Shown piece after piece: positions 1,240 to 4,841 of a stretch of 5,673 nt of DNA. The position numbers and the translations under genes were made by a program. This stretch comes from a virus. Lineage: Duplodnaviria; Heunggongvirae; Uroviricota; Caudoviricetes. Each line of letters starts with the position of its first letter. The stretch's first letter is position 1. The notes beneath the pieces are model-generated. The model was not told where the DNA came from. It made no database searches and saw nothing but the letters and a program-made list of their open reading frames with translations. The stretch lies in IMG/VR virus record IMGVR_UViG_2617270987_000001. One strand, 5' to 3'.

Positions 1240-1443
1240 TTACGGCGCTGTTTTTAATCCTGCCGGGATTTCGTTATTGTCCATGTGAATAACTTTATCG
1301 TCCGGATAACAGTTGCCGGGAATTTTCTGTTCCGCTGCGGCAGCCATGCATTCTTTCATTGAGTTGTACATGCCGGTGATTGCATCAAGCGACTCACCAG
1401 TATTGAGATGTACAGTCAGAATGAGTACGAATAATGTGTTCAT
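1240..1443 (-). CDS. Small hypothetical protein (67 aa) with N-terminal hydrophobic segment (possible signal peptide or membrane anchor) and two Cys
   Basis: ATG at 1443 preceded by GGAGAG. Its start overlaps the stop of the upstream gene as ATGA (1440-1443), typical translational coupling. N-terminus MNTLFVLILTVHLNTG is hydrophobic. The track starts it at a GTG two codons upstream. Confidence 0.6.
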   Translation of the reverse strand: MNTLFVLILTVHLNTGESLDAITGMYNSMKECMAAAAEQKIPGNCYPDDKVIHMDNNEIPAGLKTAP

Positions 1444-1628
1444 CGCCACTCTCCGAAAATACCGAGTTTAAGAAGGGCAATTCTGGAGAGTATGGAATTG
1501 TCATTCAGCAGGTAGGGTTCATATTTTCTCATATTGATTGCATCCTCGGTGAAATCCCTGTTACTGAGCAGAACACCAATATTAAAGCACCCGTCAGACG
1601 TATTAACGTTTGGTAGTGACGTTTCCAT
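1440..1628 (-). CDS. Small hypothetical protein (62 aa)
   Basis: ATG at 1628 with GAGGA 7 nt upstream; starts 10 nt after the rha stop and overlaps the next start by 4 nt. No family recognised. Confidence 0.55.
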   Translation of the reverse strand: METSLPNVNTSDGCFNIGVLLSNRDFTEDAINMRKYEPYLLNDNSILSRIALLKLGIFGEWR

Positions 1629-1638
1629 TATCGCGTCC

Positions 1639-2196
1639 TCAACAATGAATTTTTAGCAATTGCTCCACAGTCATATTTTTAATTGCGCTCCGGTTTACAA
1701 GAGTCCATCCTTGTTTCTCCAGATAAAACCGGAAGGTATCCAGGGTGCAGACCATTGCGCCGTCAGGAACGGTTTCAGTGAATTTGATATTGCCGTGTTC
1801 GTCGAGACGGATAACCAGGGTGCGTCCGTCCCCGTGAATCATTTTGTCGGGAGACGGGGCGTTATTCTGGCGCAGTTCTGCTTCCATGCGGTCGAACTCA
1901 GCAATGTATGCCTCTTTAAATGCAGCGGCTTTTTTGCCAGTGAAGCCCATCACCAGGAAAACGAAGCCGTTTTTGGTGATTTGGTACATTGGGAGTTTGC
2001 GCCCGGTTGAGTCGGTGTATTCGCTCGACACAAAATTGTGCTCAGTGAATTTTGCTGAACAGTCCAGATTGCGAATTTTATCCAACACTCGTTCGTGGCG
2101 TTTGCCAAAGAACTCGGCGATCGCAACAGACGTAGTGACAGCGCGACCATTTTCGATGGTTACGTCAGGGTGAGAAAGGGTAAGGATAGTAGCCAT
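1639..2196 (-). CDS. rha: Phage regulatory protein Rha (Rha-family N-terminal domain), 185 aa
   Basis: Sequence from MATILTLSHPDVTIENGRAVTTSVAIAEFFGKRHERVLDKIRNL ... GFVFLVMGFTGKKAAAFKEAYIAEFDRME matches the conserved Rha-domain pattern as I recall it. ATG 2196 has GGAGG 8 nt upstream. The track ORF runs a further 99 codons upstream to 2493, but those codons are G/R/P-rich and contain a promoter and hairpin, so I take 2196 as the start. Confidence 0.85.
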   Translation of the reverse strand: MATILTLSHPDVTIENGRAVTTSVAIAEFFGKRHERVLDKIRNLDCSAKFTEHNFVSSEYTDSTGRKLPMYQITKNGFVFLVMGFTGKKAAAFKEAYIAEFDRMEAELRQNNAPSPDKMIHGDGRTLVIRLDEHGNIKFTETVPDGAMVCTLDTFRFYLEKQGWTLVNRSAIKNMTVEQLLKIHC

Positions 2197-2365
2197 GATG
2201 GCAGCCTCCGCGATGAATTTGATTAACTCACCACCGAGGTTTTCCACGACCATAAGGGTGGTGAGACGTACAGGGGTGGAAATACCGGTCATCACGGAAC
2301 CCGGCCAGCCTTGCGGCTGCCCTGCACGCCCCACCATAATGCGAATGTGGCTGTGCTTAACGCAT

Positions 2366-2388
2366 AAAAAAACCGCCTGAGCGCGGTT
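2366..2388 (-). terminator. Candidate intrinsic terminator (short GC stem plus U7) on the minus strand
   Basis: Minus strand reads AACCGC-GCUCAG-GCGGUU followed by a run of seven U (plus 2366-2372 is AAAAAAA). The stem is only about 6 bp including two A-U pairs, so it is weak. Confidence 0.35.
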
Positions 2389-2448
2389 ATGCGCCGTGAA
2401 TGATTTCGGGTTTCCACGCCCGGCACCCGTTTTATGAGGTGCAGGTGC

Positions 2449-2477
2449 ACTATAATTCCACCCGTTCTGGTTTTCAA
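2449..2477 (-). promoter_or_regulatory. Sigma70-like promoter on minus strand: TTGAAA, 17-nt spacer, TATAGT
   Basis: Read base by base on the minus strand: -35 TTGAAA (2477-2472), spacer ACCAGAACGGGTGGAAT (17 nt), -10 TATAGT (2454-2449). Predicted start near 2442, about 77 nt upstream of the end of the U-run. Confidence 0.45.
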
Positions 2478-2675
2478 TAGCTACATTCAACATTTTCTCT
2501 ACCTTTCATCACCTAAGTGAACTTTGTGATGCGGTGCCTGGTGCCTCCAGGTGACATTAACCAGTTAACAATTAACGCCGGATGATTCACCCATAACACT
2601 TGTGTTTTTAACTGTTCTGCGTGCGCTGAGCCGCATTCACCGCATCACGAAATTCACTTTTTACTTCATAGACCG

Positions 2676-3139: not shown

Positions 3140-3181
3140 TTTTCCTCCGGTTAGACCCCATATATCTATAGCAGTATGAGT

Positions 3182-3261
3182 TATGGCGGGGTTGTCACTT
3201 AAGCGTATGGTCAACCTGACAACCCGGTGTCCTCAACGGGGGAAGGAATAACCCCGCCATA
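3182..3261. repeat. Nested inverted repeats: 12-bp perfect IR TATGGCGGGGTT / AACCCCGCCATA enclosing inner IR GGTTGTCA / TGACAACC
   Basis: Indexed directly: 3182-3193 TATGGCGGGGTT and 3250-3261 AACCCCGCCATA are exact reverse complements; 3190-3197 GGTTGTCA and 3217-3224 TGACAACC likewise. Confidence 0.5.
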
Positions 3262-3499
3262 CTTACCGCCGCGCCATTTCGCGGAGTGCCACAACCGGAA
3301 GCGCACGGTCGAAGAAATTAACGACAAGCCTCATAGGTGAAGGCCTTCGCCGTACGCTTTCGTGTTATGCCCTGACTTTTCAGGGAAATATCCTTTCAGT
3401 AAACTGTCAGTGCCGGATTCTTATCCGTGTCCGGCGCACGACCACACGTAGCCCCGTATTGGTCTCCATTTCTAACCCAGAACCTAAATGGAGGATAAA

Positions 3500-3784
3500 A
3501 TGGCAAAATTTACAGTCAGGATCGAACTTCGCGATTCCAGTTCCGCTGATTACGATAAGCTTCATGAACGAATGGAAGCAAAGGGATTCTCCAGAACGAT
3601 TACAACCTCTTTAGGGAACACCTACCGTCTTCCTAATGCCGAATATATATATTCAAGCAAGAATGAAGACAAAGAATCTGTTGCTGACCTTGCTGAATCA
3701 GTGGCCTCAAAAGTTAAGAAAAATCCCGGTGTTCTTGTTACCGAATCTAATGGGCGCTATGTAAAAAACTTAGATGATGCTTAA
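3500..3784 (+). CDS. Hypothetical small protein (94 aa), unrecognised family, plus-strand insert at the position sieB occupies in Rac
   Basis: ATG 3500 with GGAGG at 3490-3494 and a 5-nt spacer; the track's upstream ATG 3488 has no RBS. Protein MAKFTVRIELRDSSSADYDKLHERMEAKGFSRTITTSLGNTYRLPNAEYIY... Stop overlaps the stop of the convergent 48-aa gene by 4 nt. Visibly AT-rich. Confidence 0.8.
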   Translation: MAKFTVRIELRDSSSADYDKLHERMEAKGFSRTITTSLGNTYRLPNAEYIYSSKNEDKESVADLAESVASKVKKNPGVLVTESNGRYVKNLDDA

Positions 3785-4084: not shown

Positions 4085-4263
4085 GTTGACCTCATTTCCC
4101 CTTAACGCCGGGGTAGCGGAACAAAAACCTGCTGCATAGTTAAAGTTGAACCCTGCCGTCATGTTCTTACGCCTCGGGCTGGCTACTTAACCCCTGACCA
4201 CTGCCTGGTAACTCAAAGTATTGCCCTGCATTCTGTGGGGCGGGGTGGGTTGGTATGAAAAGA

Positions 4264-4304
4264 AGGATACCCATAGGTATTTAAAAAGTAAATACCCATG
4301 GGTA
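4264..4304 (-). promoter_or_regulatory. OL/PL-like region: two palindromic operators overlapping a leftward promoter
   Basis: TACCCATAGGTA (4268-4279) and perfect palindrome TACCCATGGGTA (4293-4304), centres 25 bp apart. Minus-strand promoter candidate -35 TTTACT (4292-4287), 17-nt spacer, -10 TATCCT (4269-4264). Confidence 0.5.
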
Positions 4305-4346
4305 ACTTTTTGCGGTGTCTTAACTGGTGACTAGTTGTTTGGTGAG

Positions 4347-4766: not shown

Positions 4767-4841
4767 AGGTAAATAATAGATGCGATTACTGCAAGGTAAA
4801 CAACCTGTGGGTATTGACTTTTGTTTACCTGTAGGTATTCT
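4760..4841. promoter_or_regulatory. OR-like region: three operator-like sites with divergent PR-like and PRM-like promoters
   Basis: TACCTGTAGGTA (4826-4837), AACCTGTGGGTA (4802-4813, centres 24 bp apart) and a weaker TGTCCATAGGTA (4760-4771) over the repressor start. Plus-strand promoter TTGACT (4814-4819), 16 nt, TATTCT (4836-4841). Minus-strand -10 TATTAT (4778-4773) lies 6 nt before the repressor ATG. Confidence 0.5.

Follow-up and report, generated by a model that had tools for sequence, protein, structure and literature searches.

Is the DNA just upstream of the phage gene rha read as protein, as regulatory RNA or as both? The interval in question (positions 2,197 to 2,493) lies in a 5,673-nucleotide stretch of Caudoviricetes DNA, hereafter the window. 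At this locus RefSeq holds only a 284-aa CDS, 'Rha family phage regulatory protein', with the RNAs unannotated; the segment annotated there as the N-terminal 99 codons of Rha overlies a predicted promoter, a terminated small RNA and an antisense RNA. We find that the two readings of the interval, small RNA or attenuator on the one hand and coding extension on the other, are both true, and that it very probably forms the control region at the head of an antirepressor switch run by RNA, of the P1 immI, P4 immunity or Gifsy-1 isrK type, in which the predicted RNAs would together decide whether an antirepressor-like protein is made. The RNA families and the switch logic are already known from P1, P4 and Gifsy-1, the case is ordinary rather than new, and the locus poses no new question; its practical warning is that Pfam Phage_ASH, like many 'antirepressor' CDS calls, consists largely of translated RNA genes.

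The module lies in the early-left operon of a lambdoid prophage, adjoining dicB. An insertion of the module into dicB was considered, given the 81-84-nt 'DicB, incomplete' call that PGAP places just upstream, and rejected, as the translated fragment bears no evident similarity to DicB. Related sequence occurs in 3,176 of 5,426 complete E. coli genomes, with a median of 2 and a maximum of 8 copies per genome, and the same module lies between cII and O in Stx phages.

A predicted promoter and an IsrK-type RNA upstream of rha

A first-pass annotation had proposed, on the minus strand, a TTGAAA-17-TATAGT promoter followed by an RNA of about 77 nt, read either as a small RNA or as a leader terminator, and both elements are borne out. 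The promoter, of sigma-70 type and equivalent to PisrK or PLE, occupies 2477..2449 (-35 TTGAAA, 2477..2472; 17-nt spacer; -10 TATAGT, 2454..2449), matches the consensus at 10 of 12 positions, is the top promoter-like site of the whole window and sits within the 284-aa ORF, with a predicted transcription start at 2442. In 13 lineages, P4, Gifsy-1 and P1-like loci among them, the -10 hexamer (TATAGT, TACACT or TATATT) ends 6 nt 5' of the IsrK 5' end. From that point the Rfam model isrK (RF01394) aligns end to end with 2442..2366 of the minus strand (all 77 model positions; score 67.7 bits, above the gathering score of 50; E = 2.2e-13), and it overlaps a weaker match to c4-a1b1 (RF03163, 25.7 bits). 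Judged by its sequence, the predicted 77-nt RNA thus belongs, over its full length, to the known IsrK/seqA family of small RNAs, complete with two 5' hairpins, a Rho-independent terminator with U-run and a predicted promoter at its 5' end.

The GCACC/GGUGC and CGGG/CCCG pairings that had been noted in this RNA are the first two helices of the isrK consensus. In hairpin 1 (2442..2423, minus strand) four pairs carry compensatory changes across 18 loci. Hairpin 2 (2422..2407, minus strand) presents in its loop the element a1 (GUGGAAA, 2417..2411); the b1 element, UCAUUCACGG (2403..2394, minus strand), is single-stranded. The intrinsic terminator, AACCGC-GCTCAG-GCGGTT followed by T7, stands where it had been described (hairpin 2388..2371, minus strand; U-run ending at 2366), and its T-run is invariant in the 18 loci. 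Folding of 2442..2366 returned the hairpins and the terminator but no unusual stability: compared with shuffles, the 77-mer gave an unexceptional z of -1.16. Promoter-like sites in the window (6, against 8.4 expected from shuffles) were likewise not above chance, and the count of terminator-like sites (8 against 5.9) was without significance. Because none of these three quantities exceeds chance or shuffled sequence, they were left out as evidence; that the RNA observation itself exceeds chance follows from the covariance-model match, the fixed distance to the -10 hexamer and the covariation across homologues.

An antisense RNA within the rha leader

The distance from the U-run to the rha ATG, given earlier as 170 nt, stands (169-170 nt), but the leader is not the empty one that had been supposed, since a C4 RNA and two target sites lie inside it. 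Following a spacer of 24 nt, an 88-nt antisense RNA of the C4/CI type, equivalent to STnc1160, spans 2254..2341 of the minus strand and matches the C4 family (RF01695, clan CL00128) at 81.9 bits, against a gathering score of 45, over model positions 1-87 of 87. It has the C4 architecture of a long closing stem with two internal hairpins, bears compensatory changes at 13 of 27 consensus pairs (18 loci), and folds with an MFE of -47.3 kcal/mol (z = -4.37; none of 200 shuffles as stable). The b' element, GUUCCGUGAUGA (2300..2289, minus strand), occupies the loop of hairpin 2, the a' element, AUUUCCAC (2283..2276, minus strand), lies in the junction, and a CACCACC motif is found in the 3' part (2262..2256). 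In P1/P7 and in P4, C4 is cut from a longer precursor by RNase P. Scanning of the interval against Rfam at E <= 1 returned only c4-a1b1 besides isrK and C4; an upstream match to STnc100 (31.9 bits, gathering score 47) was discarded as sub-threshold.

The order isrK, C4, gene recurs in Gifsy-1, P4, P1, ST64B, cdtI, several Stx phages, Citrobacter and Arsenophonus, with a C4-type RNA found directly downstream of IsrK in every case. IsrK corresponds to seqA and C4 to CI (PMC3632133). In Gifsy-1, IsrK is both a small RNA and, through read-through of its terminator, the 5' part of the antirepressor mRNA; a processed STnc1160 RNA has been described there, and accumulation at about 77 nt, Hfq binding and activation in trans of the translation of the read-through mRNA are known for the Gifsy-1 IsrK only (PMC4825925).

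Downstream of C4, rha proper (1639..2196, minus strand; 185 aa) contains the Phage_pRha domain (E = 1e-30; residues 120-204 in the numbering of the long ORF) and begins at ATG 2196 with GGAGG at 8-nt spacing; start codon and Shine-Dalgarno sequence are conserved in all homologues. Rha is a member of the Bro/antirepressor network. By analogy, rha would be the gene under C4 control, the counterpart of P4 kil, Gifsy-1 anrP and P1 icd-ant.

Recognition elements covary three ways

The exposed C4 elements a' and b' have their complements in IsrK, as a1 and b1, and again in the rha leader, as a second pair of sites: a2 (GUGGAAA, 2241..2247, minus strand), which is the same as a1 and complementary to a', and b2, UCAUCGCGGAG (2216..2206, minus strand), which overlaps the rha Shine-Dalgarno GGAGG (2209..2205). 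Variation among 42 homologous leaders was concentrated in these six blocks. Across a covariation set of 27 loci, including P1, P4 and Gifsy-1, the six elements covaried three-way, with 11 a-types and 22 b-types that assort independently. Helices were consistently longer for cognate than for non-cognate combinations over the 27 loci: means of 7.0 versus 3.6 bp for a':a1; 7.0 versus 4.5 bp for a':a2, with 7-8 bp in 27 of 27 loci; 8.5 versus 5.1 bp for b':b1; and 10.3 (range 7-12) versus 6.5 bp for b':b2. Read from the sequence of the window, b':b2 forms 11 bp, two of them G-U pairs, and b':b1 just 6 bp without interruption, or about 10 bp if one U bulges out. At each of the 27 loci a purine-rich tract resembling a Shine-Dalgarno sequence (GGAGG, GAGG, GGGG or the GTGAGG of P1) directly follows b2 or is overlapped by it, ahead of the start codon that comes first downstream of the RNAs; the C4 loop has at its 5' end a constant UUC, which pairs with the GAG of the Shine-Dalgarno sequence.

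Helices were counted element by element because loop-loop pairing lies outside the pseudoknot-free model of RNAduplex and RNAcofold, which on whole RNAs either opened the C4 stem or predicted zero intermolecular contact. Duplex energies calculated on extracted elements separated cognate from non-cognate combinations for three of the four interactions and were noisy for C4 a' against the region downstream of C4 that contains a2. The elements were taken from alignment columns, as palindromic loops self-fold in single-sequence MFE folds. A scan of genome contigs for Rha yielded 8 loci, and most of the diversity came from viral contigs and phage records. Some prophages carry two tandem modules that have b in common and differ in a.

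We offer as a tentative reading, somewhat short of even odds, that the a and b elements act in combination as an RNA 'immunity code' that diversifies fast among E. coli prophages, in which partial sharing sets cross-repression and cross-induction, together with three in-frame Rha isoforms of 284, 232 and 185 aa. If so, the Rha-type antirepressor of each prophage would be gated by its own C4, shared a or b types would decide which co-resident prophages cross-repress or cross-induce one another, and, orf45 and Eta frames being fused to rha in this clade, the choice of promoter or start codon would set the isoform.

A long open frame across the RNA genes

The rha frame had been described as stop-free for 99 codons upstream of the gene, with a probability of about 1 per cent in random sequence. 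The open frame is real (ORF 1639..2493, minus strand; 99 + 185 codons, 284 aa; the annotated Rha CDS of RefSeq), and its openness is not due to chance: among 39 in-frame homologues the rha frame contains 0 stop columns and the other two frames contain 32 (17 + 15). From ATG 2493, 51 nt upstream of the IsrK start, this Eta-like ORF spans the promoter, IsrK, C4, a2 and b2 before entering rha in frame, and its internal ATG 2337 is the counterpart of the Gifsy-1 orf45 start. The same frame relative to C4 holds a long ORF in P4 (eta), ST64B, cdtI, four Stx or related phages, Citrobacter and the homologue L081; the frame is not kept open in Gifsy-1 and Arsenophonus. BLASTP aligns the long ORF with the P4 eta ORF (E = 4e-18), and Pfam Phage_ASH, which covers residues 14-109 here, matches the eta ORF as well. 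ATG 2493 has a weak Shine-Dalgarno sequence and an in-frame TGA five codons upstream. Two opposite-strand genes lie between the start of the operon and the long ORF, and no promoter upstream of the ORF was identified.

The first-pass annotation had also set the two readings against each other, such that a coding N-terminal extension of Rha conserved in homologues would speak against the RNA. That opposition was mistaken, because homologues keep the frame open and the RNAs coexist with it, as in the nested eta/kil genes of P4 (PMC10111431). The alignment that had been suggested for choosing between covariation and codon-like conservation gave both RNA covariation and an open frame.

An alternative interpretation is that the RNA module is real and the 284-aa frame is never translated, its openness being inherited by chance or by hitch-hiking on constraints that act on the RNAs, and the RefSeq CDS call and the Phage_ASH family being artefacts of calling ORFs across conserved RNA genes. 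Several observations fit it: changes in the six recognition blocks rewrite the encoded peptide entirely; three homologues (L017, L046 and L062) carry frameshifts, two of them through a change in the length of the terminator T-run; in Gifsy-1 a stop precedes orf45 by two codons and anrP is entered in another frame; the Shine-Dalgarno sequence at ATG 2493 is poor; and the 32 stop columns are not independent, because a1/a2 and b1/b2 are copies of each other. We nevertheless consider it unlikely, given that the rha frame is free of stop columns where the other two have 32, 16 of which fall upstream of ATG 2337; the indels of +1 and -4 in L081 and L083, which jointly restore the frame; and the fact that ten divergent lineages keep open the frame with the same offset from C4. 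The cro-cII-O phages, moreover, have the start codon of the long ORF overlapping the stop of the gene before it, an arrangement not seen in the window. The P4 homologue eta is itself reported, in PMC10111431, which summarises Forti et al. 1999, to be translated from an upstream promoter, this translation preventing termination and bypassing the RNA immunity.

Three further interpretations were weighed. That IsrK acts mainly as a free-standing, trans-acting, Hfq-dependent small RNA on mRNAs of the host or of other prophages, its position before rha being secondary, accords with the Rfam description of the family as an Hfq-binding RNA, with its own predicted promoter and terminator and with the multiple copies per E. 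coli genome (median 2, up to 8), which make cross-talk between prophages possible; we regard it as distinctly improbable, since IsrK varies only in a1 and b1, and these follow the C4 and leader of the same locus, a C4-type RNA always lies directly downstream, and the IsrK phenotype in Gifsy-1 needs an intact cis locus (PMC4825925). Far less credible still is a structured leader serving as a target of processive antitermination (put or nut type) or as a metabolite- or protein-sensing attenuator, a reading suggested by the stem-loops and then the terminator that, in a lambdoid prophage, come right after a strong promoter: it is not called for, because the isrK and C4 models account for every structured element, RNA-RNA complementarity explains the variable positions, and c4-a1b1 is the only further Rfam family at the cutoff used. 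We attach equally little weight to the interpretation that the 284-aa ORF is simply Rha as annotated and that promoter, hairpins and U-run are incidental to coding sequence, even though RefSeq has exactly that CDS with zero RNAs and Phage_ASH matches the extension. Two full-length covariance-model matches above curated thresholds, 13 compensatory pairs in C4 and the experimental demonstration of homologous RNAs in Gifsy-1, P1 and P4 all argue against it; three-way covariation of six short elements would make no sense for a protein, and the conserved GGAGG-N8-ATG at 2196 is the target of the C4 loop.

A proposed antirepressor switch

On the preferred reading, an RNA-based antirepressor switch, the near-consensus promoter inside the long ORF would start a transcript whose first 77 nt form the IsrK/seqA-type RNA with its intrinsic terminator. 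For this locus we infer the transcript start at 2442, the 3' end at 2366, the processing of C4 and the repression of Rha. If the characterised relatives are a guide, most transcripts would end at the IsrK terminator, and those that read through would yield C4, cut from its precursor, along with the rha mRNA; pairing of C4 with a2 and b2 would then block ribosome binding at the rha start and keep Rha off, with polar termination as a likely consequence. IsrK, carrying a copy of both target sites, could fold onto C4 in cis, and in trans it could titrate C4 or open the leader and so turn rha translation on, as shown for Gifsy-1 anrP. The conserved 284-aa frame, which starts upstream of the promoter, would correspond to P4 eta: on transcripts coming in from the upstream early-left operon, ribosomes in this frame may run over the IsrK terminator, C4, a2 and b2, and such translation would free expression from the RNA immunity and yield a Rha with an N-terminal extension. 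Should the switch work as in Gifsy-1, it would matter for how prophages are induced and for cross-talk among those that share a host. We caution that the dominant regulatory sign or step at this locus is uncertain because the characterised relatives disagree: regulation is a translational block of icd in P1 and premature termination in P4, and in Gifsy-1 IsrK activates through coupling to orf45.

Comparison with P4, Gifsy-1 and P1

The Salmonella prophage Gifsy-1 shares the promoter, a 77-nt IsrK with terminator, a C4-type RNA about 25 nt further on and an antirepressor-like gene (Rfam scores of 79.3 bits for isrK and 69.0 bits for C4), as well as the position of the orf45 ATG at the C4 5' end, about nt 106-107 of the transcript, and the overlap of the SD-proximal target site with the Shine-Dalgarno sequence of the downstream gene (Hershko-Shalev et al. 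2016, PMC4825925). It differs in that the orf45 TGA overlaps the anrP ATG in another frame, whereas here 47 codons run stop-free into rha, and in that the frame upstream through IsrK and the promoter is open here but not in Gifsy-1. The cargo differs too, AnrP having an ORF6N domain and Rha a Phage_pRha domain with no significant similarity between them, as does the position, which in Gifsy-1 is the late region adjoining antQ rather than the early-left operon next to dicB.

The immunity region of the satellite P4 (PLE - seqA - CI RNA - seqC) is matched by isrK at seqA and by C4 at CI in Rfam. There, as in the lambdoid prophage studied here, a long ORF has its first codon some 50-75 nt ahead of the start of the internal promoter, crosses both RNAs and enters a gene whose product begins ...EAAIMAT(T/I)LT.SHP, and the SD-proximal target site (b2 in P1 naming) overlaps the Shine-Dalgarno sequence, that of kil in P4. 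Kil, however, retains just a 65-aa stump of a Rha-like N-terminus, against the full 185-aa Rha encoded here; IsrK and C4 stand 107 nt apart in P4 but 24 nt apart here; and P4 uses a late activator-dependent upstream promoter, PLL, for which no equivalent was identified here.

The immI region of P1/P7 has the same order of promoter, a1 (in the hairpin 2 loop), b1, C4, a2 and, at the ribosome-binding site, b2 (Citron & Schuster 1990; curated record NC_005856). Its C4 belongs to the same Rfam family (68.8 bits), whereas its a1/b1 leader scores 35.1 bits against isrK, below the gathering score of 50. The P1 promoter is under the C1 operator Oc4; here no operator was found. What C4 blocks in P1 is the small gene icd, which Ant synthesis requires (PMC8201110), so that the blocked start is that of icd there, and would be that of rha itself here. 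In both systems the output is an antirepressor, and the in-frame nested products ant1 and ant2 of P1 are comparable to the proposed long and short forms of Rha. In P1 and P4 alike, the C4/CI-type antisense RNA is the repressor proper.

An IsrK-family RNA upstream of rha

Re-reading of the minus strand upheld every coordinate in the first-pass annotation, namely those of the promoter, the terminator with its U-run, the rha start codon and the open frame. The promoter TTGAAA-17-TATAGT (PisrK, 2477..2449) agrees with the consensus at 10 of 12 positions and is the top promoter-like site of the window, and the terminator AACCGC-GCTCAG-GCGGTT is followed by T7 (2388..2366). Generic scans of the window returned six promoter-like sites (8.4 expected) and eight terminator-like sites (5.9 expected), neither above chance, and the 77-mer folded no better than its shuffles (z = -1.16); thus, the case for an RNA rests on comparative evidence. 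An Rfam scan placed isrK (RF01394) on the minus strand at 2442..2366 (67.7 bits, gathering score 50, model positions 1-77 of 77), while a related model, c4-a1b1 (RF03163), gave a sub-threshold match of 25.7 bits overlapping the 5' half of isrK. Since the isrK match is full-length and above a curated threshold, the ~77-nt small RNA proposed earlier is identified by homology as an IsrK-family RNA, with ends exactly as predicted. Folding of 2442..2366, suggested at the time as a check, showed ordinary stability. In an alignment of 18 loci, four pairs of hairpin 1 carried compensatory changes and the T-run was invariant.

C4 and its predicted pairing partners

The 170 nt between the terminator and rha, earlier taken as merely the remaining leader, contain a second RNA, the C4 antisense RNA (RF01695; 2341..2254, minus strand), again as a full-length Rfam match (81.9 bits, gathering score 45, model positions 1-87 of 87). 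Its fold (z = -4.37) and the compensatory changes at 13 of 27 consensus pairs in the 18-locus alignment make C4 more strongly supported than IsrK.

Among 42 distinct homologous leaders (80-100% identity, from loci found with the Rha protein), nearly all variation fell within six short blocks, named here after the curated P1 record, all on the minus strand: a1, GUGGAAA (2417..2411, IsrK hairpin 2 loop); b1, UCAUUCACGG (2403..2394, single-stranded part of IsrK); b', GUUCCGUGAUGA (2300..2289, C4 hairpin 2 loop); a', AUUUCCAC (2283..2276, C4 junction); a2, GUGGAAA (2247..2241, rha leader); and b2, UCAUCGCGGAG (2216..2206, rha leader), which overlaps the Shine-Dalgarno sequence GGAGG (2209..2205). 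Potential pairing was scored as the longest uninterrupted helix in 27 loci, including P1, P4 and Gifsy-1, and was longer in cognate than in non-cognate combinations for a':a1 (7.0 versus 3.6 bp), a':a2 (7.0 versus 4.5 bp), b':b1 (8.5 versus 5.1 bp) and b':b2 (10.3 versus 6.5 bp). The a' element occurs in 11 different sequences and b' in 22. The a-types and b-types assort independently; for example, locus L069 combines the b-type of the window with the a-type of L003. In all 27 loci, b2 overlaps or abuts a Shine-Dalgarno-like tract (GGAGG, GAGG, GGGG or, in P1, GTGAGG) situated 6-9 nt upstream of the first start codon, and the GAG of the Shine-Dalgarno sequence pairs with a constant UUC at the 5' side of that loop of C4 which carries b'. 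Of the evidence that C4 would pair with both IsrK and the rha ribosome-binding site, this three-way covariation is the strongest.

Right after a2, a conserved GGUGGUGAG (2227-2235, minus strand) is complementary to CUCACCACC (2257-2265), the 3' strand of the stem that closes C4, and so could compete with the 5' strand of C4, where ATG 2337 lies. The two may form an alternative helix in the unprocessed transcript; P4 has a compensatory pair, GGCGAUAGC / GCUAUCGCC, at the equivalent positions.

A conserved open frame across both RNAs

The rha start (ATG 2196, minus strand) is preceded by GGAGG, and its frame is open for 99 further codons up to ATG 2493, giving a 284-aa ORF (1639..2493, minus strand; Eta-like ORF). 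The first-pass annotation had treated this frame as a rival to the RNA reading. The frame itself is real and conserved: between 2493 and 2196, 39 in-frame homologues have no stop-codon columns in the rha frame against 17 and 15, mostly variable, in the other two, 16 of these 32 lying upstream of ATG 2337. We caution that the nominal probability of such a stop-free frame, (2/3)^32 = 2e-6, is too favourable, since a1 and a2, like b1 and b2, are copies of one another. Indels of +1 and -4 in L081 and L083 jointly restore the frame, and three homologues (L017, L046 and L062) are frameshifted. P4, ST64B, Stx2a_1447, 1720a-02 and Stx1_EH1995, and also cdtI, Stx2_14040, Citrobacter L005 and L081, have a long ORF that shares this frame relative to C4 and continues in frame into the downstream gene, but the frame is not kept open in Gifsy-1 or an Arsenophonus locus. 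The window ORF matches P4 eta (BLASTP, E = 4e-18), and Pfam Phage_ASH matches both, covering in the window ORF residues 14-109, the translated IsrK-C4 region. The rivalry did not survive these comparisons, by which the open frame turns out to be a second layer coexisting with the RNAs.

In L046 and L062, the terminator T-run (alignment column 141; 2372-2366 in the window) is 8 nt instead of 7, and the extra T is what breaks the Eta-like frame in both; terminator strength and frame integrity are thus coupled at a single homopolymer.

Distribution and genomic setting

Eighty-five records carry the 411-nt region at >=99% identity. Of 5426 complete E. coli genomes, 396 cover at least 80% of its length and 3176 have part of it (median 2, up to 8 places per genome). 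RefSeq spans the whole interval with a 284-aa "Rha family phage regulatory protein" and annotates no RNA, leaving the predicted RNA switch absent from the public annotation of this genome. The module sits in a Qin/Rac-like lambdoid prophage, in its early-left operon, with minus-strand order HTH repressor, ydfA (DUF1391), Rha, dicB, DUF1482, exonuclease, xis and int. It lies between cII and O in the early-right operon of ST64B, cdtI and several Stx phages, and adjoins antQ in Gifsy-1.

Tandem pairs of isrK-C4 modules occur in some prophages: in L047 (1255-1443 and 2785-2973) each is followed by a rha gene, with a common b-type and different a-types, and in L085 (841-1029 and 1255-1443) the upstream copy is truncated right after a2. 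The sRNA-Xcc1 family (RF02221, gathering score 53) replaces isrK-C4 directly upstream of a rha homologue in L052 (1367-1456, 67.4 bits) and precedes isrK in L008, the Arsenophonus locus (1086-1172, 61.8 bits), which suggests that RNA modules are interchangeable in front of Rha-type genes. DicF RNA (RF00039) lies upstream of the module in L062 (130-181, 76.7 bits) and L041 (959-1010, 61.1 bits); in the window it had no match at E <= 1, although dicB is present (1443-1628, minus strand).

Just upstream of the long ORF, 2523-2645 (minus strand) partially matches STnc100 (31.9 bits, below the gathering score of 47; model positions 30-154 of 206) and in many loci is conserved ahead of the module. 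Within it, PGAP annotates 81-84 nt as an incomplete DicB pseudogene, but the translation, TQVLWVNHPALIVNWLMSPGGTRHRITK, does not resemble DicB. A palindrome-like site of 13-14 nt occurs four times (TACCCATAGGTAT, TACCCATGGGTAA, ACCTGTGGGTAT, TACCTGTAGGTAT), at 4263-4309 and 4803-4839. Two copies, lying between the repressor gene and ydfA, form an inverted repeat of 21 nt, and two are in the divergent region between the repressor and the cro-like gene. They look like operators of a DicA/RacR-like repressor and probably mark the early-left promoter, which could feed the Eta-like ORF. A stretch of ~310 nt (3170-3480) is free of ORFs and unusually structured on both strands (plus, z = -4.90; minus, z = -3.85); none of 100 shuffles folded as well, and no Rfam family matched at E <= 1. 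It may represent an extended structured 5' UTR or an RNA not yet described. Directly downstream is a plus-strand gene (3500-3784) named in RefSeq as a type V antitoxin of the GhoS type; its Pfam GhoS score, 19.2 bits, falls short of the cutoff (21).

Proposed mechanism and comparison with known systems

Parts, order, folds and complementarities are shown at this locus by sequence analysis and comparison; the steps that follow are modelled on P1, P4 and Gifsy-1. PisrK would fire, with most transcripts ending at 2366 as IsrK and read-through yielding C4 and rha mRNA. C4 would pair with a2/b2 and occlude the rha Shine-Dalgarno sequence, preventing Rha synthesis and imposing polarity on downstream genes, while IsrK, through decoy sites a1/b1, would compete for C4 or remodel the leader and could switch translation on. 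Transcripts from upstream would be translated through the Eta-like frame and escape control. The dominant step could be a translational block as in P1, premature termination as in P4 or IsrK-dependent activation as in Gifsy-1.

In P4, the homologous long ORF is eta, the last part of which is kil. According to the summary of Forti et al. 1999 in PMC10111431, a constitutive promoter sits inside eta, its transcript ends early through CI and seqA interactions, and read-through gives Kil; translation of full-length Eta occurs only when transcription comes from an upstream promoter, and this translation prevents termination. P4 seqA and CI are the structural homologues of IsrK and C4, respectively (PMC3632133). 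In Gifsy-1, the 45-codon orf45 starts at the equivalent ATG, at the C4 5' end, and stops on the anrP ATG, whereas in the window ATG 2337 opens 47 codons in frame into rha. The cargo is a full Phage_pRha protein here, ORF6N AnrP in Gifsy-1, the 65-aa Kil in P4 and Icd/Ant in P1. This locus further differs from the characterised examples in that the predicted block acts directly on the Shine-Dalgarno sequence of the cargo gene itself, the orf45 equivalent is fused in frame to rha, and the module adjoins dicB. At the level of sequence, everything that marks such a system is present, including both Rfam families and the P4 eta/kil layout, and the differences from P1, P4 and Gifsy-1 are variations within a known kind; the first-pass annotation was a correct, if incompletely described, rediscovery of it.
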